From assembly GCA_964512655.1 (NCBI GenBank), contig CAZEJT010000003.1, positions 183,719 through 247,718 of the forward strand: 64,000 nucleotides of DNA, written 5' to 3'. The notes beneath the pieces are model-generated. The model was not told the DNA's origin. It searched no databases and worked only from the letters and a program-made list of their open reading frames with translations. Positions 13,562-32,759 of this stretch are shown here, piece after piece. The translations under genes and the position numbers were made by a program. The stretch is from an uncultured Chlorobiaceae bacterium. Lineage in GTDB: Bacteria > Bacteroidota > Ignavibacteria > UBA10030 > SZUA-254. Each line of letters opens with the position of its first letter. The first letter of the stretch is position 1.

Positions 13562-14956
13562 CTACTTCCCGATACAGAACTTGGCAAAGATAGCGTTTAG
13601 AATCTCGTCCGAGGCCACTGTCCCTATGATCTCACCAAGGCTATCCAGAGCAAGCCTGACCCCAACGGCTACCAGTTCGTTACTCTTCCCCTGGCAAAGG
13701 TCCTGCTTCGCCTTGGAAAGATGTTCAGAGGCCTTCGAGAAACTGTCTTTCTGGCGCTCGTTCGTGACAATTAGGCTCTTCTCGGGGCTCGAACCATTGC
13801 CGTGTAAGGCGGTCGAATACAAGAGTTCTCTGAATTCCTCAAGCCCCTCCAACGTTCTTGCTGAGAGATATGTTACCGGAAGTCCTAGACGGCACTTTGG
13901 AAGCTCAAGTCGCCATCCTGGCTTCAGATCGGTTTTGTTAACCGCGAGGACAATGCGCCGGCTGTCGGTCCCTTCCTCCTTCAACTTGCTGAGTATGGAC
14001 CACTCGCCCTCTGAGACGCTTCCTGCCTCAACGACGAAAGCGACGATGTCCGCCTGACTTAACTCCTTCTGAGTTCGCAGGATACCTTCTCTCTCAACCA
14101 GGTCATCGCTCTCCCTGAGGCCCGCTGTGTCAGTGAGGGTACATAGAAGTCCACCGATGTTGAAAGTTTCGTGGATAACATCTCGTGTGGTCCCGGGAAT
14201 CTCTGTGACAATCGCTCGATCTTCGGATAGTAACGCATTGAGAATACTTGATTTGCCAACGTTCGGCCGGCCGATCAGAACAACTCTTACACCTTCTCGA
14301 TAGAGCTTTCCGTACTTGTAGGAATCGACTAAGGAGGAGATCTCCCCAAGAATAGCTATTAAACTATTGTTTATAATAGCTTTATCTGCAATTTCAATCC
14401 CCTCCTCCGCAAAGTCGAGTTCAAGTTCGAGAAGGCCGCAGAGATGAATGAGTCTTTCACGGAGTTCACCGACTTTGGAAGACAGCCGACCCTGAAGTTG
14501 CATCATCGAAACACGCAAAGAATCTTCTGATCGCGCTTTAATTAGATCTGCAACTGCTTCCGCTTGTGAAAGATCGATTCTGCCGTTGAGAAAGGCTCTC
14601 TTGGTGAATTCCCCGGGCTCGGCGGACCGGGCACCGCTCTGGAGGAGGGACGCGAGGATTTTGCCGGTCAAGTACATCCCCCCGTGACAGCTGATTTCTA
14701 CCGTATCTTCTCCGGTATAGGATCCCGGCGCCCTGAAGACGGTTGCAACAACCTCGTCGATTACTTCTCCGGCGATGTCCGTGAAATCGCCGAAGTGGAC
14801 CGTGTGCGTAGGAGCCAATGACAGGGTTCCCCCCTTGCGGAATCTACTGTCGCAGAGCTCGATGGCCCCCTTCCCGCTGACGCGAAGGACAGAAATACCC
14901 CCCTCCCCAATGGGGGTAGCGATGGCGGCAATAATATCGTCCTGGGGAGTCATCAC
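13562..14956 (-). CDS. mnmE: tRNA modification GTPase MnmE (TrmE)
   Basis: N-terminal IAAIATPIGEGGISVLRVSG, G-domain GRPNVGKSSILN, and the conserved C-terminal FCIGK. Confidence 0.95.
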   Translation of the reverse strand: MMTPQDDIIAAIATPIGEGGISVLRVSGKGAIELCDSRFRKGGTLSLAPTHTVHFGDFTDIAGEVIDEVVATVFRAPGSYTGEDTVEISCHGGMYLTGKILASLLQSGARSAEPGEFTKRAFLNGRIDLSQAEAVADLIKARSEDSLRVSMMQLQGRLSSKVGELRERLIHLCGLLELELDFAEEGIEIADKAIINNSLIAILGEISSLVDSYKYGKLYREGVRVVLIGRPNVGKSSILNALLSEDRAIVTEIPGTTRDVIHETFNIGGLLCTLTDTAGLRESDDLVEREGILRTQKELSQADIVAFVVEAGSVSEGEWSILSKLKEEGTDSRRIVLAVNKTDLKPGWRLELPKCRLGLPVTYLSARTLEGLEEFRELLYSTALHGNGSSPEKSLIVTNERQKDSFSKASEHLSKAKQDLCQGKSNELVAVGVRLALDSLGEIIGTVASDEILNAIFAKFCIGK

Positions 14957-15160
14957 TGAATTGGATAGGGAGACTGGCCTCTGAATTTAGGAAACTAGGC
15001 CAAAAGAAACAACGAGCTGTCCATGAACTTTCCTTCGGTTGTGCATGAGCCGGGAGTTGGGTAGATTTAGTGAAGAGGTATCTGACTGCCAGGGGGCGGC
15101 CGGGGGCCGGCGATCGTTTTGGATCACCGCACGGAACTACCTCCAGGGCTCAGAGAATTC

Positions 15161-15670
15161 ATGCGCGTGTTGGCGAGCATATCGGTGTGCTTTTTCTTGT
15201 TGGGATGCAGCGAGGAAGAAACATTCGTCCAATACCCCAGACCCAACATCGAGCTCAACGGCAGCGCCTCGCCTGTAACAGGAAGTGCGCTGACCCCGGT
15301 CACGGTTAGGGTGAGCGTCGTAAACAGTGGGAACCTTCGCAGGATATGCTATTCCGGTTGCGGTTATCTGACCCCCGGAATTACCTATCACCTTTATGAT
15401 CCCTACTTCAGGGAGGTCTATCTCTCCAATCCGCTGACCCGGCCCTATTGCGCGGACTTTGTTGAGCATTTCTATCCGAGCAAGACATTCGAGGGCACCT
15501 TCATAATCGACGGAACAATCTTTACCGCACAGGGAGATTCATCGGCTATGAAGCCTGGCACGTACTCCGTCATCATTGAGTTCACTTCCTGGGCCGAGGA
15601 AAACCCTTCCGGGGCAAGCGTCCTCGTAGAACAGAAGCTGCTCACGGTGGGTTGGAAATCGACGAAATGA
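15161..15670 (+). CDS. Paralogous lipoprotein family member 1 (possible BsuPI-like beta-sandwich; candidate protease-associated protein)
   Basis: ATG at the MRVL… signal with lipobox FLLGC. Conserved blocks RICYSGCGYL, YDPYF, PGTYSVIIEFTSWAEENPS and KLLTVGWK are shared with two paralogs. A conserved 45-bp leader lies upstream. Confidence 0.7.
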   Translation: MRVLASISVCFFLLGCSEEETFVQYPRPNIELNGSASPVTGSALTPVTVRVSVVNSGNLRRICYSGCGYLTPGITYHLYDPYFREVYLSNPLTRPYCADFVEHFYPSKTFEGTFIIDGTIFTAQGDSSAMKPGTYSVIIEFTSWAEENPSGASVLVEQKLLTVGWKSTK

Positions 15671-15761
15671 TCTGGGCTAAGGAGTGGAATACTCCGAGGA
15701 GGTAGCAATGGCAGCAACAACAGTATCGAGTGGAGTCATCGCAAGATTGAGCGTAGGTATC

Positions 15762-16271
15762 ATGCGGGTGGCGATGAGCATATCATTGTGCTTCTTGTTG
15801 TTGGGGTGCAATCAGGACGTGTTAACCGTTCCACCCGATACACTCGGCATCGAGCTCACTGTCACTCGTTCACCCACAGTGGGCAGCGTCACCAGCCCGG
15901 TGACCATCACGGCGCGCGTGAACAACCGGGGTGTATCGACGCGGATTTGTTTTTCAGGTTGCGACTATCTGATCACCGGGATAGCCTTTCGTATCTATGA
16001 TCCCTACTTCCAAGAGGTTTTTCTCTACAACCCGACGACGTGGCCGCATTGTGCAAACTATCGTGTGTCGTTCCATCCGGGTGAGAAAATCCAGGGTGCG
16101 TTCACATTCGACGGAACGCTCTATGATGTCCGTGGAGATACGCTTACGATGGGCGGGGGTACTTACACCGTCCTCATCGAATTCACTTCCTGGGCGGAGG
16201 AGAATCCATCCGATACAAATCGGCTCGACGTTGAGAAGCTGATTACATTTGACTGGAAAACGGGGGGATAA
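15762..16271 (+). CDS. Paralogous lipoprotein family member 2 (tandem copy)
   Basis: MRVAMSISLCFLLLGC lipobox, with RICFSGCDYLITG, YDPYFQEVFLYNP, GGTYTVLIEFTSWAEENPS and KLITFDWKTGG. About 70% identical to copy 3 and about 45% to copy 1. Confidence 0.75.
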   Translation: MRVAMSISLCFLLLGCNQDVLTVPPDTLGIELTVTRSPTVGSVTSPVTITARVNNRGVSTRICFSGCDYLITGIAFRIYDPYFQEVFLYNPTTWPHCANYRVSFHPGEKIQGAFTFDGTLYDVRGDTLTMGGGTYTVLIEFTSWAEENPSDTNRLDVEKLITFDWKTGG

Positions 16272-16314
16272 TCCGGGGACACCTTCAATTGGCTTCATTC
16301 CCTCGAATGAAAAA

Positions 16315-16341
16315 GTCCCAACCGGCGCGTCCGGTTGGGAC
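16315..16341. terminator. Bidirectional hairpin terminator between lipoprotein copy 2 and the convergent ECF sigma gene
   Basis: 11-bp perfect stem gtcccaaccgg / ccggttgggac with a cgcgt loop, and AAAAA on the + side (a T-run for the minus-strand gene). The same element recurs after copy 3. Confidence 0.6.
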
Positions 16342-16351
16342 TTACTACAAT

Positions 16352-17233
16352 TTACTGGAGGACGGCCAGATCGATTCTGTTAAGCCGGGTGGGGTCAGCA
16401 ACAACCTCGAGTTTGACTACCTTTCCGTTTGCGATCGTGAATTCAAGAACAACCTGCAAATCACCTCTCGGGGCGACGATAATTCCCACGGCGCCATTCA
16501 CTAGTCCAATTTGACCAAACCGGGCGCGCCCGGAGAAAGCGACAGCTACCTTCGCCACGCTTTCCGCGCCACGGATCTCCGTTGCCAACCCGGAGGGTGA
16601 TGCGCTGGCATCGGCCCTCAGTTCGACATCGGGATCAAGAACCGCTATCAAGCCCGCAACATTTCCTTCACGTGCAGCTTCAAGAAAGGCATTCACCGCT
16701 TTTTGTTGGTCTTCAATTTCACCCGACGATGTCTTGGGAGTACCCTGGACGCGGCGTCGCGCACGACTGGCAAGCTGGCGCGTTGCAGTCGTTGAACGTT
16801 GCACGATAGGCGCGATGGCATCGAAAGGGTACTCAAAAACATCATGCAGCACGAATGCGACACGCTCTGCGGGCGTCAGAGTCTTCAGGACGACGAGCAG
16901 GGCAAGACCTACCGACTCCGCCAATGCCGATTCAGCCTCAGGATTCATCGACGTGTATGAAGGCATGGTCCTATCGAACTCGTGAAACTCGAGCGATTCT
17001 TCCCGGCGTGATTTCCGAGCACGGAGCATGTCCAGGCAGATGCGCGCGGTGACGGTTGTCAGCCATCCCTCCAGGTTCTCGACTCTGTTTATGTCGGCAT
17101 TTCTCAACCGTATCCACGCCTCCTGAACGGCATCCTCCGCTTCGGGTAACGAGCCAAGAATCCGGTACGCGATTGCCCGCAGACGGGGCCTCTGGCTCTC
17201 AAATCTCTCGACCAACGACTCTTCTCTCTTCAT
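16352..17233 (-). CDS. ECF-type RNA polymerase sigma factor with C-terminal extension (ECF41/SigJ-like)
   Basis: Region 2 AVQEAWIRL and region 4 TARICLDMLRARK are present. About 290 aa, with a ~100-aa C-terminal (SnoaL-like) extension typical of ECF41-type sigma factors. Confidence 0.8.
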   Translation of the reverse strand: MKREESLVERFESQRPRLRAIAYRILGSLPEAEDAVQEAWIRLRNADINRVENLEGWLTTVTARICLDMLRARKSRREESLEFHEFDRTMPSYTSMNPEAESALAESVGLALLVVLKTLTPAERVAFVLHDVFEYPFDAIAPIVQRSTTATRQLASRARRRVQGTPKTSSGEIEDQQKAVNAFLEAAREGNVAGLIAVLDPDVELRADASASPSGLATEIRGAESVAKVAVAFSGRARFGQIGLVNGAVGIIVAPRGDLQVVLEFTIANGKVVKLEVVADPTRLNRIDLAVLQ

Positions 17234-17303
17234 CCGTCACATTTTCTCGTCCTGCCGCGTCATTCAGTTATGGTACAATAATGACGAATCTAAACCAATT
17301 GAT

Positions 17304-17993
17304 GTGACAAGGAATATGGACACCGCCCGTACTTCACTTATTAATGATCAACGAGACCCGCACAATATTTTGGTGATCGGGGCCAATGGCGGAATCGGAA
17401 GGCAGGTTGTGGAGATGGCCCTGAAGGAGGGTTTCAAGGTGACGGCGCTTCTTCGGACACCATCCAACCTGGGCCTTCGGCACGACAACCTTGAGATAGT
17501 GCAGGGTGACGTCATGCGCCCTGAAACCATCGAACCACATTTTGCCGGGAAGGATGTTGTAATTTCTGCCATCGGAAAGGATTCCCTGAAGCAGACCACT
17601 CTCTATTCCCAAGGCGTAAGGAATGTGATCGCCGCAATGAAGAATGCGCGGACACAGCGGGGCTTCTTCATCTCGGCCTCAGGACTGGAGGTGAATCCCT
17701 CCCACTCATGGGCGGTCCGATCCCTCACCAAATATGTTTTGCAGAATCTGCTGAAGAACATGTACGATGATCTTCGTAGAATGGAAACCCTCATAAAGGT
17801 TAGTGCCGTGAATTGGACAATTGTTCGTCCACCGCGGCTCCTCAACAAGCCGTCTGTGGGAAAATACCGGGTTGCCGTCGACAGATTCTTGCAGCATTGC
17901 CTTACAATTTCGCGAGCCGACGTAGCTCATTACATCATTCACAACTTGAAAAATGAGTTCACGTATCGAACAACTGTTGAAATTGCCTATTAG
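17304..17993 (+). CDS. NAD(P)H-binding SDR/NmrA-like oxidoreductase
   Basis: Rossmann motif ILVIGANGGIGRQVV and about 220 aa. The start is uncertain (GTG at 17304 or ATG at 17316). It is divergent from the ECF sigma gene, a common ECF41 neighbourhood. Confidence 0.7.
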   Translation: MTRNMDTARTSLINDQRDPHNILVIGANGGIGRQVVEMALKEGFKVTALLRTPSNLGLRHDNLEIVQGDVMRPETIEPHFAGKDVVISAIGKDSLKQTTLYSQGVRNVIAAMKNARTQRGFFISASGLEVNPSHSWAVRSLTKYVLQNLLKNMYDDLRRMETLIKVSAVNWTIVRPPRLLNKPSVGKYRVAVDRFLQHCLTISRADVAHYIIHNLKNEFTYRTTVEIAY

Positions 17994-18285
17994 ACCCAGG
18001 CCCCCCATACACGCCGCCACAGGTTCATGACGCGATCTGCCTCCCGAATCGTGATCCAGTTGGGATTCTTGAATATCCCGTCATCCTGAAGCCTGCTCCC
18101 GCTAAACTATATGCCCCAACAAGCGTACACAAGTTGGGACTATCTGTAGTACATATAGTCTAGGCCCTCATACCAGTGCGGGATAAGGAGGGATATCCGG
18201 GAACCTCCTTGCCTGAATCCTTCCCGGTACGGATTTTGCAGTATCGCCCGCGGTTACAATTACTCGATCTGAATTCTGAAGTAGG

Positions 18286-21200
18286 GTGTACAGAATCATG
18301 AGGAGGTTTCTCGAACTTCTTGTCTTGATCATCACACCGACGATCCTTCTCGCCGGTGGATATCCGTCGTCTGGTGATTCCACCCGCCGGGCACTGATGT
18401 CCATGGACAGCGCGAGGAGGGCAGAGGAACAGAGGCTCGGAGCGCTGCAGAAGGTAATCGTTGAGTTCAACGACGAGCCAATGTTCCTGGCCCGTAGGGA
18501 GCCGCATCCTCCTTTCAAGGCGAGATCGTCGGATTCCTACCTGGCACGCTTTTCACAATTCGGCGCCGATGCAGCTGCTATCACAAGGACATTTCGCTCC
18601 GCAACATCGGATCGCGTAGGAATCCGTCATCGGTACTACAAGGCGTTCTTCGGCGTCAGTGCCACGGTCCCCGGCAGGATATTACCGGCGCTCAGGCGCC
18701 TTGCGTACGTTAGGGGAGTCTATCCCGATGGTGAGGTGCACGCGACAATCGAGCCGGCGATCGAACTAATTGGCGCCCCGGCCGTCTGGGGGACACTCGG
18801 GACGCAGGGTGATAGTGTCCGCGTCGGAATCATCGATTCGGGGATCGATTATCTTCACCCGGCACTTGGCGGAGGGTTTGGACCCGGTTTTAAGGTCGCC
18901 GGGGGATACGATTTTGTGAATAATGACAAGGATCCGGCGGATGACAACGGGCATGGGACGCATGTCGCAGGCATTATCGCAGCGGACGCCGACACTGTAA
19001 AGGGGGTCGCTCCCCACTCGATTTTGTACGCTTACAAGGCTCTCAATGCGGCGGGGAGCGGCGCCGTAAGTGATATCATCGCTTCGATCGAACGCACCGT
19101 CGATCCGGATCAGAACGGGGATGACTCCGACAGGCTCGACATTGTGAACATGAGTATCGGGGGCCCCGGTGGGCCCGATGATCCGGGAAGCGTTGCAGTC
19201 GACAATGCGGTGCGGCTCGGGGTCACATTCTGTATCGCTGCGGGAAACACGGGGCACAAGATCCCAGTTCAAGGAAAGGAGAATAATTACTTTTATGATG
19301 GCTCCGAAACCATCAACAGCCCCGGGACGGCGGAGCTTGCAATCACCGTTGGGGCGTCTGACCTTTCGGATAACCTGGCCTTCTTCTCATCCCGTGGGCC
19401 GAACACAACGTCGTTCAGCATCAAGCCGGACGTTCTCGCGCCGGGAGTCGACATCAACTCGACGTATCCGCCTGCCGGGTTCAAGGTCCTGAGCGGCACG
19501 TCCATGGCCACCCCGATGGTTGCCGGAGTCGCTGCATTAATCAAGGGTGTCCACCGCTCCTGGACTCCGGCCATGATCAAGTCCGCGATCGTGAACAAAG
19601 CCAGAAATATCGGCCTCAACGCCTACCTGCAGGGGGGAGGGAGAGTACGGGCGATACAATCAGTATCAGCTAAGACGCTCGTTACCCCTTCCGCGTTGAG
19701 CTACGGATTGGACGACCCCGCAGCAGCCCCATGGTCGTTGCCTGAAACATTGCGCGTCTACAACACTCATTCATCGTCGCAGTCGTATGCAATCGATGTC
19801 GGGGGAATTGCATCCGGCATCTCGCTGAACGTGTCTCCTTCGAGTTTTTCCATCCCCGCACAAGACTCGGCCATGGTGATTGCCACCCTTACGGTGGATA
19901 ATGCGTTTGTGGCCATTGCTGATGAGGATATTCTCCGTTTTACCGGGCGCGTGATATTGAGCGGCACTGCCGATACCGCCGTTGTTCCATGGGCATTCGT
20001 GCGGACCAGCAGGCTGGTCATCACCACGAGCGAGCCGGATCCCTTTTTTATCGGCTACACAAATACCTTCGGCTTTATCAGCAACATGCAGAGGGTGAAC
20101 CGGACCAGTCCGACCCGAGCCGTGGTGTACGCTCCTGTCAAGGGCGCTTACGAGTTTTTCACCGTCTTCCGGAGTCCTGACGTGCCGCCCAGAATCGTCA
20201 TCAACGAAGGGGTTCCTGTCGTCACCGATGCTTCCGAGGTCTTCCTCGATGCGGCTCAAGCCGTCAATCCGCTGATCTTTCAGGGCGTTGATCAAGATGG
20301 TGCTTCTCTGGCGACGTACCGCGCACCACAGCACGCCGTTATTACTTCGCTCCCCAATTTCGGTGACTGGAACACTACGTTTTCCGGAGCCTCCGACACC
20401 GTGCTGATCTCCGGCGCGTCCGCGAGCCATTCCTTCAAACCGGTCGAACTCCAGATCGATCTTATGAAGACCATGACCTTCCACGTCGTGCAGTTCGAGA
20501 GATTCACGGGCATGACCGGCGCCAGGTTGGCGGTCAATTCTCCCGCGGATTTCATTCAAGAGCATTTCAAGGTCAAAGTTCCTCCCGGGACTATGTCGGC
20601 TGCGCAATTCACTACAATCTGGTCATACACCGACTTCGGGGGAATGGGGGGCTTCTCCGGGATTGGTGCCGATCTGGACACTCTCTCGGTGAACGGAGAT
20701 GAATATGCGTTCACAGGATATTTCGGAAAATCTCCCAGCCTCACGGAGGACGTGGCTCTAAAATTCTACTCGAGCTATTCCAATGTTCCGGCCCTTTCTC
20801 TCGACTATGAGTCGCCGTTTATCATGCCATACGGGGACAGTGTCGTGGTCACGGCGAGGGAGTTGGTCGACCCCGCTGTCCCCCGCTTCAAGAGCGGAGG
20901 GACGTTGACGTTCGGAGGGGCGCCGGCCCACCTGCTGATGGTGTGGAACAACAATATTATTGGGACGAACACGCTGTTCTTTCGGCCGATCTTTGAGGGA
21001 ATGCTCCGCGAGATCCGGTATCGTGATATCGTGGCCGGAACGTATAGCGTCTTTGACAAGAACGGCACGGAGCTCTTCACAAAACCCCTCGCTGAGCCGA
21101 GCCCTCCGCTTGAACTTACCGCAGACACCTATAAGGTCGTGGCGACATCGAGCAACTACTGGCTTCGCAGCATCCGGGGAACCCAGACACTCTCATCGGA

Positions 21201-21900
21201 ATTCAATCTCGGCGCCGGATTGGCGGCGAACCCTCAGAGCATTACATCGTTCATGCTTCTCGATTCGAATAATCAAACTACTGACACCTTCGTGAAAAAC
21301 GAGCCGGGGACTCTGCGCTTTTCTGTGAACGTGCTGAGCGATACAAACCATGTTCCACTGGCTGATTCCACCAAATCTTGGTACCGAAAGCACGGAACGG
21401 AACCGTGGATACCCCTTGCCCTGACGGAGATTGCGAAAGTGGCTGAAAGGGAGGGGAGAATCCTACAGGCGGATATCAGGGCGGCGACAGGGGAGGACTC
21501 GGTCGCGATTGATCTGAGGGTGGCGTCGAAGGGTATCAACGGATTTACAGTGGAGCAGATTGTTGCGCCCGCCTTCGCCGTTGGGAAATGGGATACACTT
21601 GTGACGGACGTGAAAACTCCCTCGCCACAGCTCCCGCTGCGATTCGCCCTCGAACAGAATTATCCGAATCCGTTCAATCCTTCAACGGTGATAAACTACG
21701 AAATCCCATCACGCGGCCGCGCGGTGATGAAGGTGTACGATGTGCTCGGCCGTGAAATGGTAACTCTGGTCGACCAGGAACAGGAGGCCGGCAGTCACAC
21801 TGTTTCCTGGAATGCATCCTCGATGCCGAGCGGCGTGTATTTCTATCGGCTTCAGATGCGCTCGAATATCGCTGCAAAGAAGCTGTTGCTACTCAGGTAG
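18286..21900 (+). CDS. Subtilisin-like (S8) serine peptidase, 1204 aa, with T9SS C-terminal sorting domain (paralog of 48..4811)
   Basis: Signal peptide, then a propeptide-like N-region. GIIDSGIDY (Asp), HGTHVAG (His) and [11 protein letters not shown] (Ser). [25 protein letters not shown]…GVYFYRL. Confidence 0.85.
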
Positions 21901-21914
21901 GTTGATGCGGCGTT

Positions 21915-22493
21915 CTATAGAATCTGGTAGACGCGGTATTCTACCTTCCCCGGAATGGACTTATACACCCCCACCGCTATGACCTTGTTGAGCCAGGCGT
22001 ATTTTTCTGCTCCGGCCTCGAACATAGGTACGATGCGGGCGAACAGCTCCCCACCCGGATCTTTGTAGGCGATCCCGCGACAGGTCATTAGAATCTTCTG
22101 GTCATCATCGGTCTGCAAAACAAACCGAATGTCGAGGGAGCTTGTGCCATCGGGACGCACCACCATCCAGTCACCGCTTGGATTTACTACAGTACCCTTT
22201 AGTCGCGGACCCTCAAAAGTTCCACCGGAGACGGCAACAACTACCCGCTTCACACCCGGGGATCCAACGTTATTTGATGGCCCCCTTTCGAACACTAGGT
22301 CCATGAGAAACTGTGAGTGAAGCCGGTCTCCGGCTTGTGTGTCCGCCGGCGATGCAACCTGGTGGAGTTTCGAGCCAGTGAGGGTGTCGCCCGGGGCCGT
22401 GCCGCGGGAGCGATTGCTGCCGAACGATGTTGCCAGCGCGAAAACAACGAGGTAAGCGGTGTTGTTGATTCTCATTAGATAACGCCGAATCAT
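21915..22493 (-). CDS. DUF3237 family secreted protein
   Basis: ATG at 22493 with an AAAGGCAAAGGAACCC RBS region; signal peptide MIRRYLMRINNTAYLVVFALA. Conserved VSGGTFEGPRLKGTV…GDW…RPDG…LDIRF…TDD pattern. The longer tracked ORF (to 22685) reads through the paralog leader and is unlikely to be real. Confidence 0.65.
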   Translation of the reverse strand: MIRRYLMRINNTAYLVVFALATSFGSNRSRGTAPGDTLTGSKLHQVASPADTQAGDRLHSQFLMDLVFERGPSNNVGSPGVKRVVVAVSGGTFEGPRLKGTVVNPSGDWMVVRPDGTSSLDIRFVLQTDDDQKILMTCRGIAYKDPGGELFARIVPMFEAGAEKYAWLNKVIAVGVYKSIPGKVEYRVYQIL

Positions 22494-22635
22494 GGGTTCC
22501 TTTGCCTTTTTGTTGTGCAGATTAACAGATAATACGCGAACTGAGATGTACAACAATGAAACAGCACTAATCGGTTCAGTGGTTGTGCATGAGGCGGGAG
22601 TTGGGTAGATTGAGTGAAGAGGGCTCGGAGAATCT

Positions 22636-23139
22636 ATGCGCGTGTTGACGAGCATAACGGTGTGCTTTTTCTTGTTGGGATGCAATCATGACGTGCTAGT
22701 CGTTCCATCCCAGCTACTTGGCATCGAGGTCGCTGTCACACCCTCACCTTCGGTTGGCAGCCTCACCAGCCCGGTGACCGTGACGGCGAGCGTGAAAAAC
22801 CGCGGTATTTTCACGCGGCTCTGTTATTCAGGTTGCGACTATCTGATCACCGGGATAGACTTTCGTATCTACGATCCATACTTCCAGGAGGTTTTTCTCT
22901 ATGATCCGAGGACGCGGCCGCTTTGTGCAGACTTTACTGTTTTGTTCCATCCGGGTGAGAACATCCAGGGTGCGTTCACGATCGACGGGACACTCTACGA
23001 TGCTCGTGGCGATACGGTAAAGATGGGCCGGGGTACGTACAGCATCCTCATCGAATTCACTTCCTGGGCGGAGGATCATTCCGAGGTAAGTCGGCTCGTA
23101 GTCGAGAAGCTGATTACGTTTGACTGGAAGACGGGGTGA
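22636..23139 (+). CDS. Paralogous lipoprotein family member 3 (distal copy)
   Basis: MRVLTSITVCFFLLGC lipobox, with RLCYSGCDYLITG, YDPYFQEVFLYDP, GTYSILIEFTSWAEDH and KLITFDWKTG. Same leader and terminator as copies 1 and 2. Confidence 0.75.
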   Translation: MRVLTSITVCFFLLGCNHDVLVVPSQLLGIEVAVTPSPSVGSLTSPVTVTASVKNRGIFTRLCYSGCDYLITGIDFRIYDPYFQEVFLYDPRTRPLCADFTVLFHPGENIQGAFTIDGTLYDARGDTVKMGRGTYSILIEFTSWAEDHSEVSRLVVEKLITFDWKTG

Positions 23140-23196
23140 TAATCCGGAACAACTCGGAGACACCTTCAACTGGCCTTCATTCCCTCTAATGAAAAA

Positions 23197-23231
23197 GTCC
23201 CACCTGGCGCGGCCGGTTGGGACTTTCTGCG
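23197..23231 (+). terminator. Rho-independent terminator after lipoprotein copy 3
   Basis: gtcccacctggcgcggccggttgggac stem-loop followed by TTTCTGCG. Paralogous to the 16315-16341 hairpin. Confidence 0.55.
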
Positions 23232-23367
23232 AATGAGACCTGATAGACCCGATTATGGCCTTTCCCCTGCATCAATTGAAACTCTCCGACCCGTAATTCA
23301 TTTGACTTTCTCCAAAAGGTTGTGTAGGGTAATGTAATTGGTGTCCATTACCCACTCGAGGTGGCTT

Positions 23368-24702
23368 ATGAGGACACGCATTTTCCTTCCGATCGTTTAC
23401 CTTCTCTGGCTTCACTCGACTGCCCAAACCCAAGCCTGGGTTCCGATCAAAAGCAGCTTCATGGGACCGGACACGGCTGTCCCCCCGGCCATCTGGACGT
23501 TAACAGGCTTTGACGGCAACCTCATTGTGGCCGGTTCTTTCGGTAGTGTCGCGGGTGTTGAAGCGCACTCCATTGCGCGCTGGGACGGGACCGAATGGCA
23601 CTCGCTCGCAGGTGGCCTCACCGCGTCGAATGCCCCGAATAACGAAATTCGTGCGGTCTTGGGCCTTGGAACTGATTTGTACGCCGGAGGAGAGTTCGAC
23701 TCGATCGGAGGAATCCGGGCGAAGAATGTTGCCCGCTGGGATGGTTTTGAATGGCATGCTGTTGACGAGACGATAAAGGCCTTCCCCGTACACGCGATGT
23801 TTGTGTACCAGGGTGAGTTGTACGTCAGCGGTGTGTTTGACATGGCAGTCGCGAAGCTCGTGAACGGATCGTGGGTGCGGGTGGGATCAGATACCGATTA
23901 TGCCGGCGGATCTTCGATGACCGTGTTCCAGAATGATTTATATGTCGGAGGTTTCGAGCGGGTGATGAAGTGGAACGGGTCGAGTTGGTCTGTCCTTGGG
24001 CTGAATCCGTGGCCGGAGCACATATATGCCGCCCTTGCCACCTTTGGAAATTCTCTCTACGCCAGCGTTTACTCTCCGTATAACACAAACCTCATTGCCC
24101 GGTTCAAGGACGGTGTTTGGGAGGAGATTCTTACGCCACGACTTCACAAGTCCTATGGAGCATTTAGCAACTTCGGAAGTACCTTGATCGCCGGCGGCAC
24201 ACACGAGGCGTTCGACACCTCCGATGGGGTTGTGCCGGCTAATGGTTTGGCCGTATGGGATGGATCGAGTTGGCATTCGGGGCCAGGCGGTGTTCAAGCA
24301 ATCGTGTCGGGTTTTACAATTATCGACAGCACGCTTTATGCTGCCGGGTCGTTTCAGTTCGAAGGCGACAGTGCGACCTATGGGGTCGCGAGGTTATTAC
24401 TCCCCAACGATGTTACCGGCGGCCAGCCGCACGTTCCCCGCGAATTTGCGCTGGGTCAGAACTATCCTAACCCCTTCAATCCGTCGACAACATTCACGTT
24501 TAGTCTTCCATCGAAAGCGTTCGTCTCGCTGAAAGTGTTTGATGAATTGGGGAGAGAGGTATCAACAGTTTTTGCCCAAGAGATGCCTCCGGGGGTGTAT
24601 TCAAGGCATTGGAATGCCGATGGTTTATCCAGTGGCACATACTTTTATCGGCTTCGCGCCGGCTCAATCAGCGAAACCAGGAAGCTCATTGTGGTACGAT
24701 AA
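23368..24702 (+). CDS. Kelch-like beta-propeller repeat protein with T9SS C-terminal sorting domain
   Basis: Signal peptide MRTRIFLPIVYLLWLHSTAQ. About six repeats of the form ARWDGTEWHSLAGG, ARWDGFEWHAV, MKWNGSSWSVLG and AVWDGSSWHSGPGG at roughly 50-aa spacing. [25 protein letters not shown]…GTYFYRL. Confidence 0.75.
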   Translation: MRTRIFLPIVYLLWLHSTAQTQAWVPIKSSFMGPDTAVPPAIWTLTGFDGNLIVAGSFGSVAGVEAHSIARWDGTEWHSLAGGLTASNAPNNEIRAVLGLGTDLYAGGEFDSIGGIRAKNVARWDGFEWHAVDETIKAFPVHAMFVYQGELYVSGVFDMAVAKLVNGSWVRVGSDTDYAGGSSMTVFQNDLYVGGFERVMKWNGSSWSVLGLNPWPEHIYAALATFGNSLYASVYSPYNTNLIARFKDGVWEEILTPRLHKSYGAFSNFGSTLIAGGTHEAFDTSDGVVPANGLAVWDGSSWHSGPGGVQAIVSGFTIIDSTLYAAGSFQFEGDSATYGVARLLLPNDVTGGQPHVPREFALGQNYPNPFNPSTTFTFSLPSKAFVSLKVFDELGREVSTVFAQEMPPGVYSRHWNADGLSSGTYFYRLRAGSISETRKLIVVR

Positions 24703-24766: not shown

Positions 24767-26551
24767 CTACCGTGGACGCTGTGGGAGGTTTTTCGCAATC
24801 CTGGAAATCAGACCCCCGCTTCTTTTCTTCTCCTCCACCTTCCTCAGCGGCTCGTCTTTGTGCTGCTTGTTCACGTAGACCTGCTGGGCTATGGAGAAGA
24901 GATTGAACATGAAGTAGTATAGGTTGAGGCCCGAGGGGAACCCATTGAACATCATCGTCAGAAGTACCGGCATCATCCACACCATCATCTTCTGACGCGG
25001 ATCTTTCACGCTCATCTTCTGCTGAACAAACATAGTCACGCCCATCAGGAGTGCGAGCCCGCTGACCTCGCTGATATTGAAGAAAGGGATCTTGAACGGG
25101 AGGGTCGCGACAACATCGGGGGTGGAAAGATCCTGAATCCACCACACGAAAGAAGCCTGCCGCAATTCGATCGTAGCGCTGAATACCGCCCATAGTGCAT
25201 ACAGGATCGGCAGTTGCAAGAGCATGGGGAGACAGCCGCCGGCGGGGTTCACGCCATACTCCTTATAGAGCCGCATCATTGCCTGGTTCATCTTCTGCGG
25301 ATCATCTTTGTGCTTCTCCCGGATCTCGGTCATCATCGGCTGAAGAGCCTGCATCTTCCTCATCGAGGTCATGCTGCTCTTCGTCAGGGGGTAGAGCACG
25401 ACCTTTATGAGGATAGAGAAGATGATGAGAACGACTCCGAAGTTCGAAATGAACAGCCGCAGGAAGTTGAACGTCGGGATAATGACATAGCGGGAGATCG
25501 GTCTGATGATCCAGGCGGCCCCGAGGCTCATAATCCTATCGAGCTCGACATCATACTTCTTCACAATGTCGAAGTCGAGGGGCCCCAGATAAACCGTGAA
25601 CCTGTCGGTCTCTACGGGGTTACCGACGAAGGGCATCTTAAGAGCGAGACTGTAGTTCTCCTTCGCGCCATTATCCGGCAGATGCACCCTATTGCCTTCG
25701 ATGTAGGCTCCCTGGCTCGCCTTCTCGCGGGGAATGATTGCGAGCGCGAAGTACTTGTTTCTCGCGGCCACCCAGGTCACACGGCCGGACACGTTCTGCT
25801 TTATGGGCTCATTGAAGTTATTTGCGTCAACGTCTGTGAGCTCCCCGCCTGCAAATGCCGAGGCCTTGGCGAAATTCGATTCGTTAACGGTGTTCCGTTC
25901 CTGATACCTGAGTCCTGACTCCCAGGAGACCTGGTATTCGAAATTGGAGATAATATTCTCCATGTTCTCGAACCGATACACCGCGTCGAACGAATAGAGC
26001 CCGCCATAAAAGACGAGCGATTTGACTATGCGGCTCTTCTGGTCCACGGAGAGAACCAGATCTATCCTGACCGAATCGTTCTCGCCGAGAGTAACGTCCT
26101 GCCCCCCCTGAAATTCCGGCTTGAACACGAGATTCTTCGTGTTGACGAGCTTCCCATCGGAGGTAAAAAACGTGAGGTTGAAATCGCGCGTATTGGGGCC
26201 GTCGACGAGATTTACAGGGTACTTATCCCATGTCTTAAACTGCTTTAACTCCCACGATTGGATGGCGCCGCCCCGGGTGGATATCTCCGCCCGGTAGTAC
26301 TTGGTTTCGATCCGGATGGTCTTTGCTTCCCCTGTGGCAAGTGGTGAGAAGAACTTGCCGAGAGTATCGCCTCCCGCGCGTTCATTGCCGGGAATCGGCT
26401 GGCGGTTGATCGTGGTGTCGGGCTTCGGTACGTGGACTGCGGTAGATTCTGCACCCACCGGAGCCTTGGTGGGCGGCGGGGCATTCATATACATCCAGAC
26501 CATCAGGATGATGCCGATAAGGACGAACCCTATTATTGTATTTCGGTCCAT
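24767..26551 (-). CDS. yidC: Membrane protein insertase YidC
   Basis: N-terminal TM, a large periplasmic domain, and a C-terminal five-TM core with conserved regions. Conserved position next to yidD/rnpA. Confidence 0.92.
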   Translation of the reverse strand: MDRNTIIGFVLIGIILMVWMYMNAPPPTKAPVGAESTAVHVPKPDTTINRQPIPGNERAGGDTLGKFFSPLATGEAKTIRIETKYYRAEISTRGGAIQSWELKQFKTWDKYPVNLVDGPNTRDFNLTFFTSDGKLVNTKNLVFKPEFQGGQDVTLGENDSVRIDLVLSVDQKSRIVKSLVFYGGLYSFDAVYRFENMENIISNFEYQVSWESGLRYQERNTVNESNFAKASAFAGGELTDVDANNFNEPIKQNVSGRVTWVAARNKYFALAIIPREKASQGAYIEGNRVHLPDNGAKENYSLALKMPFVGNPVETDRFTVYLGPLDFDIVKKYDVELDRIMSLGAAWIIRPISRYVIIPTFNFLRLFISNFGVVLIIFSILIKVVLYPLTKSSMTSMRKMQALQPMMTEIREKHKDDPQKMNQAMMRLYKEYGVNPAGGCLPMLLQLPILYALWAVFSATIELRQASFVWWIQDLSTPDVVATLPFKIPFFNISEVSGLALLMGVTMFVQQKMSVKDPRQKMMVWMMPVLLTMMFNGFPSGLNLYYFMFNLFSIAQQVYVNKQHKDEPLRKVEEKKRSGGLISRIAKNLPQRPR

Positions 26552-26585
26552 CGATCTGGAGAATCAGTAAATGATGAGGGGGGAG

Positions 26586-26789
26586 TTAAGGGACCGGGTC
26601 ATATCCGCCGGCATGCATAGGATGACAACGCAGCACTCTTTTCACGGCAAGCCAGATGCCCCTGGCTGAACCATACCTCTCAACCGATTCGATTGCATAC
26701 GAGGAGCAGGATGGGTAAAATCTGCAGGTGTTCGCGGCGACGGCCGGCGAGATCCACCGCTTGTAAAAGCGAAGAAGAAGGAGGATCAT
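26586..26789 (-). CDS. yidD: Membrane protein insertion efficiency factor YidD
   Basis: 67 aa with YKRWISP…CRFYPSCSSYA…HPMHAGGYDP, the hallmark YidD motif. Confidence 0.9.
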   Translation of the reverse strand: MILLLLRFYKRWISPAVAANTCRFYPSCSSYAIESVERYGSARGIWLAVKRVLRCHPMHAGGYDPVP

Positions 26790-27199
26790 TCGGATTCCCC
26801 GGGCTTCGAATCGGCGAGCATATGGAGGAGGTTTTTCATGTCCGTTTCGACATCCTGATACGCTGGGAACCGCTGCGATTTGGTGACGTTGGAGGAGTAC
26901 AGGAATACCAGTGCCAGAGGTTTTGATTGGCGCTTCAGTCGCGGCCGGAGTATCGCCTTGTTGATCCTGTATGCTTCACGTAGTAACCTCTTGAGGCGGT
27001 TCCGGTCGACTGCTCTCTTGAGCTGCCCGGGCGCCGTGAATCCCACCCCCGAACTGGATCCAGGCCGCAGCTTCAAGCGGTCGTCTGCCAGGACGAGGCA
27101 ATGGAGGTACTTTCCCTGAATCTTTCTTCCTTGCTGGAAAACAAGCTGAAAATTGTTTCTTCCGCTCAAGATCTCCGATCGCTTCAGAGTGAGTCTCAC
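26786..27199 (-). CDS. rnpA: Ribonuclease P protein component RnpA
   Basis: VRLTLKRSEILSGRNNFQLVFQQGRKI… RnpA N-terminal motif plus a basic RNR-like region (RNRLKRLLREAYR). GTG start chosen 24 nt downstream of the rpmH stop; the tracked ORF start at 27295 would overlap rpmH. Confidence 0.75.
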   Translation of the reverse strand: MRLTLKRSEILSGRNNFQLVFQQGRKIQGKYLHCLVLADDRLKLRPGSSSGVGFTAPGQLKRAVDRNRLKRLLREAYRINKAILRPRLKRQSKPLALVFLYSSNVTKSQRFPAYQDVETDMKNLLHMLADSKPGESE

Positions 27200-27224
27200 T
27201 CCCTGTGGACCGGATTGTGGGGGC

Positions 27225-27371
27225 CTAACGTTCGTCGCTGACGGTGAGCTTCCAGCGTCCTTTTTTGCGGCGGCGGGCGAGAACTTTTCTCCCATCTTTC
27301 GATTTCATGCGCTCGCGGAATCCGTGCTTGTTTTTACGTTTCCGCACACTTGGTTGAAATGTCCGCTTCAT
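27225..27371 (-). CDS. rpmH: 50S ribosomal protein L34 (48 aa), absent from the ORF track because it is under 60 aa
   Basis: Reverse-complement translation gives [48 protein letters not shown], the canonical L34 sequence. It sits immediately upstream of rnpA as in almost all bacteria. Confidence 0.92.
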
Positions 27372-27515
27372 ACTGTTCGACTCCGATTAAAATCGATGCT
27401 TCCGGGGATGTAAAAAGAGGATTGCTGTTCACAATCCTCTGCCTTCAAAAGCCTGCAATTTGACGGTGAATTGCCAATATACGCAAAGCCCGCTGCAAAT
27501 ACAAACCAATTGGGG

Positions 27516-28127
27516 TCATGCGTCGCGGTCGTACGCGATCTTCAACCATCGTTTCACATCGTCATTGATTTCCTTCAGGGAGGTGAGCGGTATTCGATGC
27601 GTGATTCGATCCTTCTTGGCGAAACCTCCCGTGTCGATCAGCCGACCGGTGGCCTTTCGGTCGCCCAGCGCCAGGCCAAGATCGATTCGTGTCTGGGTGC
27701 TCGGCTTGATCTGCGCGAAAACGTGTTTGCGGAAGAGCGGCACGATCGTCTGGCACGGACACGCCTTTACATCCTTCCCGATCCCCAGTCCGACTTTCAG
27801 CACCTTGTCGTAGATGGGCCGCAGGCCCGATTTGCCTCCGGAGAACATTTCCTCGACGTAACGCTCGGCGGCCTGCAGATATTCTTCGGGCGCCCCGGTT
27901 TCGACGGGCCTCCCCTCAACGTAGTCCGCAAACCAGGCGGCGGTGTTTGTCCCCATGCCGTGCTTGCTCTTTAACCAGGCACGTTTGGCATCGGATCCTT
28001 TCGGGCCGGTCTTCTCGATCAATGCAACCCACTCGTCCAGCGATCGGCCTGTGGATTGCTTCAACCCGGCGATCCACCTCTGTGTCATGAGTGAGCTGGG
28101 GTGAACGCTGTAGATCGAAGTTGGCAT
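27516..28127 (-). CDS. DUF4287/DUF5655 domain protein
   Basis: Roughly 200 aa with a two-domain layout. N-terminal …TGRSLDEWVALIEKTGP… (DUF4287-like) and a C-terminal …KHVFAQIKP.TQTRIDLGL… block. Assigned by family pattern only. Confidence 0.45.
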   Translation of the reverse strand: MPTSIYSVHPSSLMTQRWIAGLKQSTGRSLDEWVALIEKTGPKGSDAKRAWLKSKHGMGTNTAAWFADYVEGRPVETGAPEEYLQAAERYVEEMFSGGKSGLRPIYDKVLKVGLGIGKDVKACPCQTIVPLFRKHVFAQIKPSTQTRIDLGLALGDRKATGRLIDTGGFAKKDRITHRIPLTSLKEINDDVKRWLKIAYDRDA

Positions 28128-28143
28128 AACGTTTCTCCTCTAG

Positions 28144-28542
28144 TTACTCTCCGAGCGTGTATTCGAAATCGTAAAGGTGCTTCCCATCCACGATGTTGAT
28201 GACGAGGCTTCCGGAGATTCCCTCCAGCCCTTCCGTTCCTGAGTCGGGCACCACGGTGATTTTCAGATCGGGGGCGCCGCGGTTCATCGTGCCCCGGTGC
28301 TGAAGCACAAACGACCCCTTCCTGCCCATCAGCGTGCCGCTCACCAGCTCGATCGCAACGTATCCCGCCGATCCCTTCACGTTTCCACCGGCGGTGAGCA
28401 TTTGCCCTTTGCTCTCGCCTTCAATATCTCCGGTGAACTTCTTGTTGATCAGCATCCTGCCCAGCGGCGTCCCGAGGTATACCTCGTCCGGACCCTGGGG
28501 TTCGAGCCTTACTTCGAAGGTCCCCTTTGCGTGGTTAGTCAT
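28144..28542 (-). CDS. DUF3224 family protein
   Basis: 132 aa. GTFEV…F.GDIEG.S.G.ML pattern typical of DUF3224. Confidence 0.5.
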
Positions 28543-28549
28543 CCTTCAA

Positions 28550-28852
28550 TCACATTTCGGTCCCCTTGATCTGCTTTCTTCTCTTGCGTGTGAGCTGAAG
28601 CCCTCCAAAACCGGCGATCACGGCGATGTAATATCCGAAATCATACCACCATCCCGAGTTGAAGGGTTCGTAGATTCGCACATCATGATTGAAAATCCCG
28701 ACTATAAGCGAGAGTGGGGCAATCCACCCATGCCATACGCCGGCGAAGAACCCTGCCCTCTCAAAGGGTGAATAGGCGTTCGTTCCCGGAAAGCATCCGC
28801 TCACCGTGATGACCACCAACAGAATGGCTGCTGCAACCAAGAGCGTTTTCAT
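28550..28852 (-). CDS. Small hypothetical membrane or lipoprotein
   Basis: N-terminal hydrophobic segment with a SGC lipobox, a second hydrophobic stretch, and a basic C-terminus. Confidence 0.4.
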   Translation of the reverse strand: MKTLLVAAAILLVVITVSGCFPGTNAYSPFERAGFFAGVWHGWIAPLSLIVGIFNHDVRIYEPFNSGWWYDFGYYIAVIAGFGGLQLTRKRRKQIKGTEM

Positions 28853-28909
28853 CGTTGCCTCACTTATTGTGTGGGTTGAGGATAGCCTCCCGTCTTCTTA
28901 TTACGCGGT

Positions 28910-29497
28910 CTATTTCACCAGGCCGATCTGCTTCATGAACGCCTGGTTGTCCCAGAAGAGGGATTCCTCTATCATTCTCCCGTTTTGCCAGTGCCCGACG
29001 GTGCACATGGAGACGTTGAATGCCTTCCCGGTCGGTTTGATGCTTTTGCCTTTGCCAATCGGCATGGGTTTGGAAAACGTACCCATCATATTGCCTGTGA
29101 CACAGGTATAATCCCCTGAGCCGAACCTGATCGGGTGCTCAAGTACTCTTGTGTCGGGCGCGAAGACAAACATCCCTTTCAAGTCTTCGATATGGGTCGC
29201 AATATCTTTCGTTTGACGACTGTCCGGCCAATTGACAACAATGTTGTCTGCATGGCTTTCACCAAGGCGATCCCATTTCTGGTGGGTAAAAACTTCGAAG
29301 TCGAGCGTGTCAAACTTGATCAGGCGCGCTTCAACTGTCGCCCTTTCTTCCGCATATTTTTTCAGCTCATTCTGCAGCGAATCTATTCTGGCCTGCAGAA
29401 TGCGAGAGTTGTCTGTGCAGCTCCCGAGAGGAAGAATTAGTACCCCGAGGACAACTCCTCCAAGAATCGCCAATCCTACTAATGCTGTTAGTTTCAT
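28910..29497 (-). CDS. SnoaL-like / ester cyclase (NTF2-fold) lipoprotein
   Basis: Signal with lipobox LGSC and a coiled region. The ~120-aa C-terminus has NTF2-like spacing typical of ester cyclases (…NIVVNWPDSRQTKDIATHIEDLKGMFVFAPDTRVLEHPIRFGSGDYTCVTGNMMGTF…WQNGRMIEESLFWDNQAFMKQ). Confidence 0.5.
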   Translation of the reverse strand: MKLTALVGLAILGGVVLGVLILPLGSCTDNSRILQARIDSLQNELKKYAEERATVEARLIKFDTLDFEVFTHQKWDRLGESHADNIVVNWPDSRQTKDIATHIEDLKGMFVFAPDTRVLEHPIRFGSGDYTCVTGNMMGTFSKPMPIGKGKSIKPTGKAFNVSMCTVGHWQNGRMIEESLFWDNQAFMKQIGLVK

Positions 29498-29587
29498 GAC
29501 GCACCTCCTTATGTGTTGAGTGGAATTGGTCGTGCTCAGTTAAAGAACTCTGCGTCCGCCTTGCTCAAAAACCCGGCCGCGCCAAAT

Positions 29588-30703: not shown

Positions 30704-30869
30704 CCGGAACGTCTTGATGTGGGTCTTGGCCGCAGGGCTGAGGAAGGGCTTTCTGCGTTTTTGTTCCTCTCGCCGCTTGGGCGATGGACGATTCCGCTGA
30801 CTCGTAGGACCTCCGTGGGCTGAAGGAGTAACTTACTTATTGGAACTTCCATTTTCAACAAAATTTCTC

Positions 30870-30898
30870 TTGACGTGAACTCCAAAACTTTGTATTAT
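30870..30898 (+). promoter_or_regulatory. Candidate sigma70-type promoter upstream of dnaA
   Basis: TTGACG, 17 nt, then TATTAT with a TG immediately 5' of the -10 (extended -10). Oriented toward dnaA. Confidence 0.4.
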
Positions 30899-30936
30899 AA
30901 CTCAAGGTTGGAGGCTTCAAGCTCCTGTCGACAACG

Positions 30937-30945
30937 TGTGGATAA
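30937..30945 (-). promoter_or_regulatory. Perfect consensus DnaA box (TTATCCACA, reverse orientation)
   Basis: tgtggataa is an exact match. A second near-box tgttgataa (one mismatch) lies at 31132-31140. Confidence 0.55.
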
Positions 30946-32698: not shown

Positions 32699-32722
32699 CT
32701 TCGCGCCGGTGTTACGAGAGTA

Positions 32723-32758: not shown

Positions 32759-32759
32759 G

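Follow-up and report, generated by a model that had tools for sequence, protein, structure and literature searches.

Three lipoprotein genes within the window (the whole stretch of 64,000 nucleotides that was analysed) encode members of a rare lipoprotein family that lies outside the coverage of Pfam and NCBIfam, whose predicted fold is nearest to that of the Bacillus subtilisin inhibitor IPI (3ISY), and whose conserved genetic partner in close relatives is a further lipoprotein of 115-120 aa. The reading that we place first, with about an even chance of being right, is that the three genes are duplicated cassettes of rare IPI-like lipoproteins that bind through a loop and are not dedicated to the T9SS subtilase encoded nearby. 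A preliminary description had drawn a candidate protease-inhibitor or partner system from the neighbourhood of these genes; the adjacency to the subtilase is probably coincidental.

Three lipoprotein paralogs and their family

All three genes are on the forward strand: LpA (15161-15670; 169 aa, the most divergent of the three), LpB (15762-16271; 169 aa) and LpC (22636-23139; 167 aa). Alignment of the paralogs places their true starts at the ATG codons at 15161, 15762 and 22636, and marks the longer TTG/GTG open reading frames from 15119 and 15684 as over-extended. The start of P0002 (an NCBI-sourced entry for LpB, 187 aa), which lies farther upstream, within the mnmE-derived scar described below, is probably over-extended too; look-ups of the exact proteins P0001 and P0002 returned no record. 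Each product opens with an N-terminal lipoprotein signal peptide, as potempin-type inhibitors do (MRV...(F/L)LLGC, the lipobox Cys being residue 16), and carries the blocks R(I/L)C(Y/F)SGC(G/D)YL, YDPYF(R/Q)EV(Y/F)L, GTY(S/T)(V/I)(I/L)IEFTSWAE(E/D) and KL(L/I)T(V/F)(G/D)WK; the original account of three lipoproteins of about 168 aa is borne out in its open reading frames, coordinates, strand and quoted blocks. We rejected a uniform acidic surface-export motif on inspecting what follows the lipobox Cys in the alignment: only LpA (C-S-E-E-E from the Cys onward) and a few close relatives have acidic residues there; a regular-expression count of the motif is unreliable, as it often matched an earlier Cys.

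Protein identity is 73-74% between LpB and LpC, 49% between LpA and LpB (full length), and 49% (mature regions) or 53% (full length) between LpA and LpC. Because dN/dS among the three is 0.35-0.45 (Nei-Gojobori), we regard them as real genes under purifying selection. A raised dN/dS between LpB and LpC in the loop window was dropped, since its 28 codons (pN 0.15, pS 0.16) hold too few sites to interpret.

Scans of the three proteins against Pfam and NCBIfam at E ≤ 10 gave no match, and a word-indexed homolog search with LpC found only LpC itself and LpB. A profile search over 1.84 billion representatives gave 89 matches at E ≤ 1e-3, mostly of 160-180 aa, which amounts to a family of about 89 clusters at 50% identity, nearly all of them metagenomic lipoproteins in that size range. 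Invariant in 40 members are N55, C67, C97, G118, G133, Y135 and W164, with the lipobox Cys nearly so, and the two invariant cysteines may form a disulfide. The best-conserved loop, L-x-D-P-x-x-x-P-x-C-(P/A)-D, holds variable positions (76-78 and 80) within a conserved frame.

Cassette elements and the neighbouring subtilases

The three genes lie within a variable stretch bounded by mnmE and yidC; mnmG, rsmG, rnpA, dnaA, dnaN, recF, gyrB and gyrA are in the window as well. Upstream of LpA and LpC (15037-15085 and 22581-22629, both on the forward strand) stands the same element, which at LpA contains TTG, a 20-nt spacer and TAGATTTA; the two sites are 90% identical, whereas the coding regions of LpA and LpC are only about 63% identical, and a 30-nt core of the element occurs in the window at these two places only, with 0 occurrences expected by chance. 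We suggest that this block is a promoter, since at LpA it resembles the Bacteroidota -33/-7 promoter type. A scan for the sigma-70 consensus found no promoter at any of the lipoprotein genes, as one would expect of an organism with promoters of the Bacteroidota type. Ahead of LpB is a degenerate copy of the mnmE start-codon region (15698-15749, forward strand; direct repeat D6, 71% identical across 52 nt to 14912-14963) that, judged from the repeat, is the scar of the tandem duplication giving LpA and LpB. LpB and LpC have in common a 3' hairpin (16293-16346, where LpB and the sigma-factor gene converge, and 23175-23228, downstream of LpC; 91% identity), which at LpB has a 13-pair stem and a terminator-like call on the minus strand; an Rfam scan of the window gave no match. 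LpA, LpB and LpC may be local duplicates of one self-contained cassette, made up of a promoter-like block, the coding sequence and a 3' hairpin, the product of which would be a small exported lipoprotein.

The nearer subtilase (1204 aa; 18286-21900, forward strand) has a weak I9-like propeptide match, an S8 domain and Por_Secre_tail, the T9SS C-terminal domain, and the other (1587 aa; 48-4811) has Peptidase_S8 and the same tail; both match Peptidase_S8 at E of about 1e-56, and their identity to each other is 35% across 778 aa. The claim that this second paralog lies within 10 kb holds at about 10 kb, its gene ending 10.3 kb before LpA. Of the statement that the lipoprotein genes sit immediately beside the 1204-aa subtilase, the proximity stands but the adjacency does not: 2,015 bp lie between the end of LpB and the subtilase start, occupied by a minus-strand gene for a sigma factor (16352-17233) and a gene for an NAD(P)H-binding protein (17304-17993), and 736 bp, with a minus-strand DUF3237 gene, lie between the subtilase stop and the start of LpC. 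We treat the 1204-aa subtilase as context for the lipoprotein genes and not as a shown member of their unit.

These distances bear on the proposal that LpA, LpB and LpC are dedicated inhibitors or partners that guard the cell against the neighbouring T9SS subtilases, as potempins do against KLIKK peptidases. Three copies do occur near two subtilase paralogs, both T9SS subtilases being within about 10 kb, and the residue preceding the conserved loop Cys, a putative contact residue, differs by paralog (Y, H, L); the predicted fold, moreover, is nearest to that of IPI, reported as a nanomolar inhibitor of subtilisins. The layout argues the other way, in that the lipoprotein genes form no operon with the subtilase, are separated from it by genes some of which are on the opposite strand, and belong to separate cassettes whose upstream block (at LpA and LpC alone) and hairpin are found at neither of the S8 genes, so that regulation common to the two kinds of gene was rejected. 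A PF00082 gene was present in none of five independent homolog contexts (loci L001-L003, L004-L007, L008-L009, L010-L012 and L014, covering up to 10 kb per side on short contigs), including that of L002, which keeps the mnmE...yidC frame, and tblastn with the S8 catalytic domain gave no match in these loci. We consider it unlikely that the lipoproteins are paired specifically with the subtilase encoded nearby, or have the guarding role built on such a pairing; the lipoprotein-subtilase linkage that the preliminary description expected to see kept in related genomes is not found in these loci.

The precedent for such a role is the potempins, lipoprotein inhibitors of T9SS peptidases in the KLIKK-peptidase system of Tannerella forsythia, so that an arrangement put forward as undescribed has in fact been described (PMC9890683). 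The resemblance is that of small lipoproteins in a T9SS-bearing Bacteroidota organism with T9SS-secreted peptidases, and extends in the potempin system to an S8 subtilase, mirolase, which is inhibited by PotC, and to a close paralogous pair, PotB1 and PotB2 (PMC9890683). Potempin genes, however, with one exception, stop ≤5 bp short of the peptidase gene, with which they are co-transcribed (PMC9890683), whereas the lipoprotein genes here are 0.7-2 kb from the subtilase across other genes and were not found in that placement, directly upstream of and co-transcribed with a T9SS peptidase gene. The scaffolds differ as well, being OB-folds or eight-stranded up-and-down beta-barrels in potempins (PMC9890683) and an Ig-like sandwich in our model, among whose listed structural matches there is no potempin.

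Predicted fold and its relation to IPI

The AlphaFold model of LpC is a single Ig-like beta-sandwich domain of the IPI/BsuPI variety (B. subtilis IPI; Pfam PF12690, formerly MEROPS I22), with a pLDDT of 82.3 from 3 sequences and 91.6 from 70, and with essentially the same strand layout in both. Ig-like beta-sandwiches of this kind serve many unrelated roles, and in order of Foldseek E-value GH3 Fn3-like domains come before 3isy. On mature domains, hhalign gave the family a probability of 88-93% against IPI (E 3e-6 to 4e-7), with 4.5% and 0.8% for the T9SS-CTD and reversed controls; a value of 97% obtained with signal peptides included was set aside, since the lipoboxes that both families carry inflate it. 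The PF12690 HMM, which does match Bacillus IPI homologs, matched 0 of the 3 window proteins and 0 of 79 family members even at E ≤ 10, and searching PDB sequences with the family profile returned chance-level matches only, 3isy not among them. The suggested resemblance to BsuPI holds at the level of the predicted fold, is equalled by DUF11 repeats in the profile comparison, and fails at that of a PF12690 match.

The two families are alike in having a single small beta-sandwich domain with the pattern N.G ... D..G.EV ... PGE ... PGTY.V.V.F, and long forms of Bacillus IPI likewise carry a lipoprotein signal peptide, with the lipobox LLIGC (PMC3901451). Neither family's genes are linked to subtilisin genes: IPI homologues are not encoded close to them (PMC3901451), which contradicts the premise that BsuPI genes typically adjoin subtilisin genes and counts further against dedicated pairing. 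The domain described here differs in being about 30 residues longer, in having the two invariant cysteines (IPI has neither), and in the loop at the wedge position, LxDPxxxPxC(P/A)D as against SKxKMFTQAF in IPI. The hhalign alignment sets DPRTRPLCADF opposite SKDKMFTQAFQ; the putative inhibitory wedge loop of IPI (KMFTQAF, residues 62-68) is absent, and the conserved loop aligned with it, DPRTRPLC(A/P)D, is unrelated in sequence and contains an invariant Cys. The families differ also in their taxa, the one family member that carries a label being Bacteroidota, and Firmicutes and Halobacteria being the main groups from which BsuPI is described.

A similarity of equal strength is to the DUF11/CARDB repeats (PF01345, PF07705), for which hhalign gave 94-95% across 81 columns, about the N-terminal two-thirds of the domain with the motif V.L.V..P..G.P.T.T..V.N.G, with a DUF11 set that was taken from the family's own weak matches, a selection that favours DUF11 similarity. 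The family HMM weakly detects multi-repeat DUF11 proteins. In the opposite direction, a check named in the preliminary description, the DUF11 HMM matched 0 of 79 members and the CARDB HMM 1 of 79, at E 0.082 only. DUF11 occurs in large surface proteins as long arrays of tandem repeats, not as single-domain lipoproteins, and its match leaves out the part with GTY.V.V.F towards the C-terminus.

Partner lipoprotein and candidate roles

In loci L001-L003 the gene for the partner lipoprotein lies 12-31 bp upstream of the family gene, and its product can be aligned with the N-terminal halves of P0007 and P0028 (E 1e-18 to 1e-23), in which the two are fused. The contigs from which P0007, P0014, P0019 and P0028 come are about 2 kb or less and uninformative for context, and scans of two GTDB genome contigs and two JGI metagenome contigs for further loci gave three empty results and one known locus. 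The partner is central to a further explanation, in which the protein is an envelope lipoprotein unrelated to proteases, an Ig-like scaffold, adhesion or ligand-binding module working with the 115-120-aa lipoprotein and resembling IPI through beta-sandwich ancestry only. Adjacency to and fusion with the partner agree with this explanation, as do the two- and three-domain tandem versions of the domain (P0026, P0046), a DUF11 similarity equal to that with BsuPI, and the presence of a T9SS-CTD protein ≤2 genes away in the window, in L002/L003 and in L004/L005. It sits less well with the homolog loci, which conserve no ligand, SusC/D-type or adhesin context, and with the window, which holds no homolog of the partner, and it has no need for a loop so strongly conserved and anchored by a cysteine where the wedge of IPI lies. 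On balance we give it a substantial chance, short of favouring it.

In the cassette reading that we prefer, the lipid anchor would tether the protein to a membrane and the cysteine-anchored loop, placed where IPI has its wedge, would bind another protein. The activity that can be proposed most concretely is that it blocks the active sites of subtilases reversibly, as IPI is reported to do; the targets of such an inhibitor, if the proposal is right, would be subtilases from any part of the genome. That the family has subtilase-inhibitor activity at all seems to us possible but doubtful. Against the reading count the lack of a PF12690 match, the equal strength of DUF11 and the rank of GH3 Fn3-like domains ahead of IPI. 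The status of IPI itself is disputed, since it was dropped from MEROPS as a possible competing substrate (PMC3901451). A bolder version, which we regard as unlikely, makes the family a lipid-anchored branch of the BsuPI fold, stapled by a disulfide, with the Cys-tethered loop (P-x-C, the residue preceding the Cys being the variable one) as a canonical reactive-site loop directed against the organism's own T9SS subtilases, in a second and independently evolved potempin-like self-protection of uncultured Bacteroidota from the environment.

What the analysis defines so far is a rare family in which the fold is predicted with confidence, two cysteines are invariant, one loop is conserved and a partner lipoprotein is either fused or encoded next to it; the homolog loci do not keep the striking proximity to giant subtilases. 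Were inhibition of subtilases true, it would settle the disputed standing of BsuPI as an inhibitor fold, and would extend lipoprotein self-protection against T9SS proteases from one oral pathogen to environmental Bacteroidota; were the loop a reactive-site loop, the family would provide the first clear evidence for the BsuPI fold as a true peptidase-inhibitor fold.

Three lipoprotein paralogs and their family

Three lipoprotein genes lie on the forward strand of the window, at the positions that the preliminary description had assigned to them: LpA (15161-15670), LpB (15762-16271) and LpC (22636-23139), each confirmed as an open reading frame (ORF). The N-terminus of all three proteins, MRV...(F/L)LLGC, is that of a standard lipoprotein signal peptide whose lipobox Cys is residue 16, and every conserved block quoted in that description is common to them. 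LpA shares 49-53% protein identity with LpB and LpC, and LpB shares 73-74% with LpC; Nei-Gojobori dN/dS is 0.35-0.45 in every pair, which indicates purifying selection and therefore three functional copies.

The genes are stand-alone cassettes. The 49-nt blocks upstream of LpA (15037-15085) and LpC (22581-22629) are 90% identical, as against only about 63% for the coding DNA of the same two genes; the 30-nt core of this block occurs at two sites only in the window, before LpA and before LpC, and the scan of the window found it before neither subtilase gene. The block (TTG, a 20-nt spacer and TAGATTTA) resembles the Bacteroidota -33/-7 promoter type and is a putative promoter. On the 3' side, 54-nt hairpin blocks of LpB (16293-16346) and LpC (23175-23228) are 91% identical. 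Upstream of LpB, a degenerate copy of the mnmE start-codon region (15698-15749, 71% identical to 14912-14963 over 52 nt) is a scar left by the tandem duplication from which LpA and LpB arose; the NCBI-sourced LpB entry of 187 aa (P0002), whose start falls within it, is probably 18 codons too long.

Searches of LpA, LpB and LpC against Pfam and NCBIfam gave zero matches even at E<=10, and a word-indexed homolog search recovered LpC and LpB alone. Among 1.84 billion representative proteins searched with a HMMER profile, 89 matched at E<=1e-3 (29 at E<=1e-10), nearly all of 160-180 aa; one member, from a Bacteroidota metagenome-assembled genome (MAG), bears the annotation 'hypothetical protein', and the few large matches are repeat proteins (DUF11, Big_9 or CarboxypepD_reg) in which only part of the profile is matched. 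Tandem domain copies behind one lipoprotein signal peptide are present in P0026 (312 aa, two copies) and P0046 (448 aa, three copies). In a 40-member alignment N55, C67, C97, G118, G133, Y135 and W164 are invariant (LpC precursor numbering) and the lipobox Cys is nearly so, with no enzyme-like conserved set of His, Asp, Glu or Ser; the invariance of two cysteines in an exported protein suggests that they form a disulfide.

Relationship to BsuPI domains

The lipoproteins had been likened to BsuPI (PF12690), the family of the Bacillus subtilis intracellular proteinase inhibitor (IPI). The likeness stands at the level of fold and does not extend to membership of the Pfam family, PF12690 matching 0 of 79 family members. 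AlphaFold2 models of LpC built with 3 sequences (pLDDT 82.3) and with 70 (pLDDT 91.6, pTM 0.83) have essentially the same all-beta layout. The best Foldseek E-values belong to GH3 Fn3-like domains (2e-6), with the IPI structure 3isy next (4e-5), its TM-scores of 0.51 and 0.63 being the best among the matches listed; this search is the less specific evidence on the fold.

For profile comparison with hhalign, the BsuPI side consisted of collected Bacillus IPI homologs, all carrying PF12690, and the IPI query was identical to 3isy at 119 of 119 aligned residues. A comparison that included signal peptides (97% probability) was rejected as inflated by the lipoboxes on both sides. For mature domains, the family matched BsuPI at 88% (E 2.9e-6) with 40 sequences and at 93% (E 4e-7) with 70, versus controls of 0.8% for a reversed BsuPI alignment and 4.5% for the type IX secretion system (T9SS) C-terminal domain (CTD) beta-sandwich. 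DUF11 repeats, chosen from the family's own weak matches, scored 94-95%, and BsuPI scored 1.9% against DUF11 directly. Given these scores and controls, the proteins seem to form an Ig-like family of their own, intermediate between domains of the DUF11/CARDB and BsuPI types, and homology to BsuPI is probable at the profile level without being exclusive.

BsuPI/IPI is the closest described family: a fold variant is common to both, and the long Bacillus IPI form has a lipoprotein signal peptide, as the family does (PMC3901451), whereas cysteines, loop sequence, length and taxon differ. The 150-153-aa Bacillus IPI forms P0092, P0095, P0097, P0101, P0104 and P0113 start with lipoprotein signal peptides of the typical kind, such as MKRLLVMLLPVLLLIGC, which fits the doubt of Rigden et al. 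(2013) about the intracellular location of Bacillus IPI (PMC3901451). The inhibitor status of IPI is itself uncertain: MEROPS dropped it on the ground that it may be a competing substrate (PMC3901451).

Profile alignment pairs the family's best-conserved loop, L-x-D-P-x-x-x-P-x-C-(P/A)-D (mature residues 72-83), with the IPI segment SKDKMFTQAF, which includes residues 62-68; in the docking of Rigden et al. these occupy the active site of subtilisin (PMC3901451). The loop frame (L72, D74, P75, P79, C81, P/A82, D83) is conserved around variable positions 76-78 and 80; at position 80 LpA has Y, LpB has H and LpC has L. Such a loop, presumably anchored by a disulfide and variable next to the Cys, recalls canonical serine-protease inhibitors, an analogy that may serve as a lead.

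Genomic setting and the neighboring subtilases

The window looks like a replication-origin region, with rsmG, mnmG and mnmE on one side of a variable mnmE-yidC gap and yidC, rnpA, dnaA, dnaN, recF, gyrB and gyrA on the other (24767-40927; dnaA at 31199-32698, flanked by non-coding gaps at about 30823-31199 and 32698-33188). The gap holds the lipoprotein genes, a sigma factor, a subtilase, a DUF3237 gene and a T9SS propeller protein. The ECF-type sigma factor (16352-17233, minus strand) has regions 2 and 4 in its first 161 residues, and is extended at the C-terminus by about 130 residues without a Pfam match. ARAGORN calls a tRNA-Ser(TGA) at 38725-38817 (minus strand), within the gyrA coding region but antisense to it, which is probably a false positive because Rfam finds nothing there. 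Farther along, four consecutive ORFs (342, 321, 676 and 235 aa; 55031-59838, plus strand) downstream of a CHASE2/sigma-54 activator gene, and a 456-aa ORF (60761-62131, minus strand), have no Pfam match.

The two large ORFs at 18286-21900 (1204 aa) and 48-4811 (1587 aa) are T9SS subtilases, as proposed, both of them containing a Por_Secre_tail sorting domain as well as Peptidase_S8 (E about 1e-56). Their homology extends well past the catalytic domain, with 35% identity over 778 aa, and Pfam gives no significant match for several hundred residues that lie between the S8 domain and the T9SS CTD. The lipoprotein genes are near the 1204-aa subtilase gene and not, as described, immediately beside it: 2,015 bp separate it from LpB (with the minus-strand sigma-factor gene and an NAD(P)H-binding gene) and 736 bp from LpC (with the minus-strand DUF3237 gene).

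Linkage with an S8 peptidase is not kept in relatives. Across the five independent contexts found by exact-protein look-ups (loci L001-L003, L004-L007, L008-L009, L010-L012 and L014), PF00082 appears in no gene table of the homolog loci, and tblastn of both S8 catalytic domains against all 14 loci gave no match, the C-terminal sorting domains alone matching. L001-L003 retain the frame of the window (DUF2461, SIS, rsmG, mnmG and mnmE on one side; yidC, yidD and rnpA on the other), and their gap lacks a subtilase: besides a single family member it contains just a T9SS propeller protein and a lipoprotein of 115-120 aa. In L004-L007 two ABC transporter genes precede the family gene, which is followed by a toxin-antitoxin-like pair and a 297-aa CTD protein; neighbors in the remaining three contexts are unrelated. 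Every homolog locus has one family copy, and the three-fold expansion is therefore particular to this genome. In three contexts (window 23338-24702, L002 8025-9446, L004 11167-12060) a T9SS CTD protein is encoded no more than two genes away from the family gene, with differing cargo domains (DUF5122 propeller, Sortilin/BNR-like, unknown); where genomes are T9SS-rich, such proximity could arise by chance.

Possible inhibition or another binding role

The premise that BsuPI is typically encoded next to subtilisins is wrong: Rigden et al. report that no IPI homolog is encoded close to a subtilisin gene (PMC3901451), and missing linkage alone therefore does not exclude an inhibitor role. Nor is the arrangement of lipoprotein inhibitors against T9SS subtilases undescribed, since Tannerella forsythia has the potempin/KLIKK system, whose outer-membrane lipoproteins act as inhibitors of T9SS peptidases, PotC inhibiting mirolase, a subtilase (PMC9890683). 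That system is the closest described by logic, but two of its hallmarks are missing here: the genes in the window form no tight upstream operon with a peptidase gene, and the predicted fold is not a beta-barrel. The dedicated partnership with the neighboring subtilases does not hold, and we judge such pairing quite improbable; some protease-inhibitor activity of the family is conceivable, if somewhat doubtful.

Most of the remaining probability falls to a protease-unrelated binding role, exercised together with the small lipoprotein of the close relatives L001-L003. Its gene (L001 793-1140; L002 9626-9988; L003 2363-2725) lies 12-31 bp upstream of the family gene, and the protein starts with MKAIGLLLLATLAVSC and ends in FDCLxCL. 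P0007 and P0028 (254-255 aa) are fusions of this partner with the family domain, because their N-terminal 113 residues align to it with E-values of 1e-18 to 1e-23 and 35-41% identity. In the window itself the partner has no homolog. What is new here is an unannotated, lipid-anchored family close to BsuPI, with a putative disulfide.
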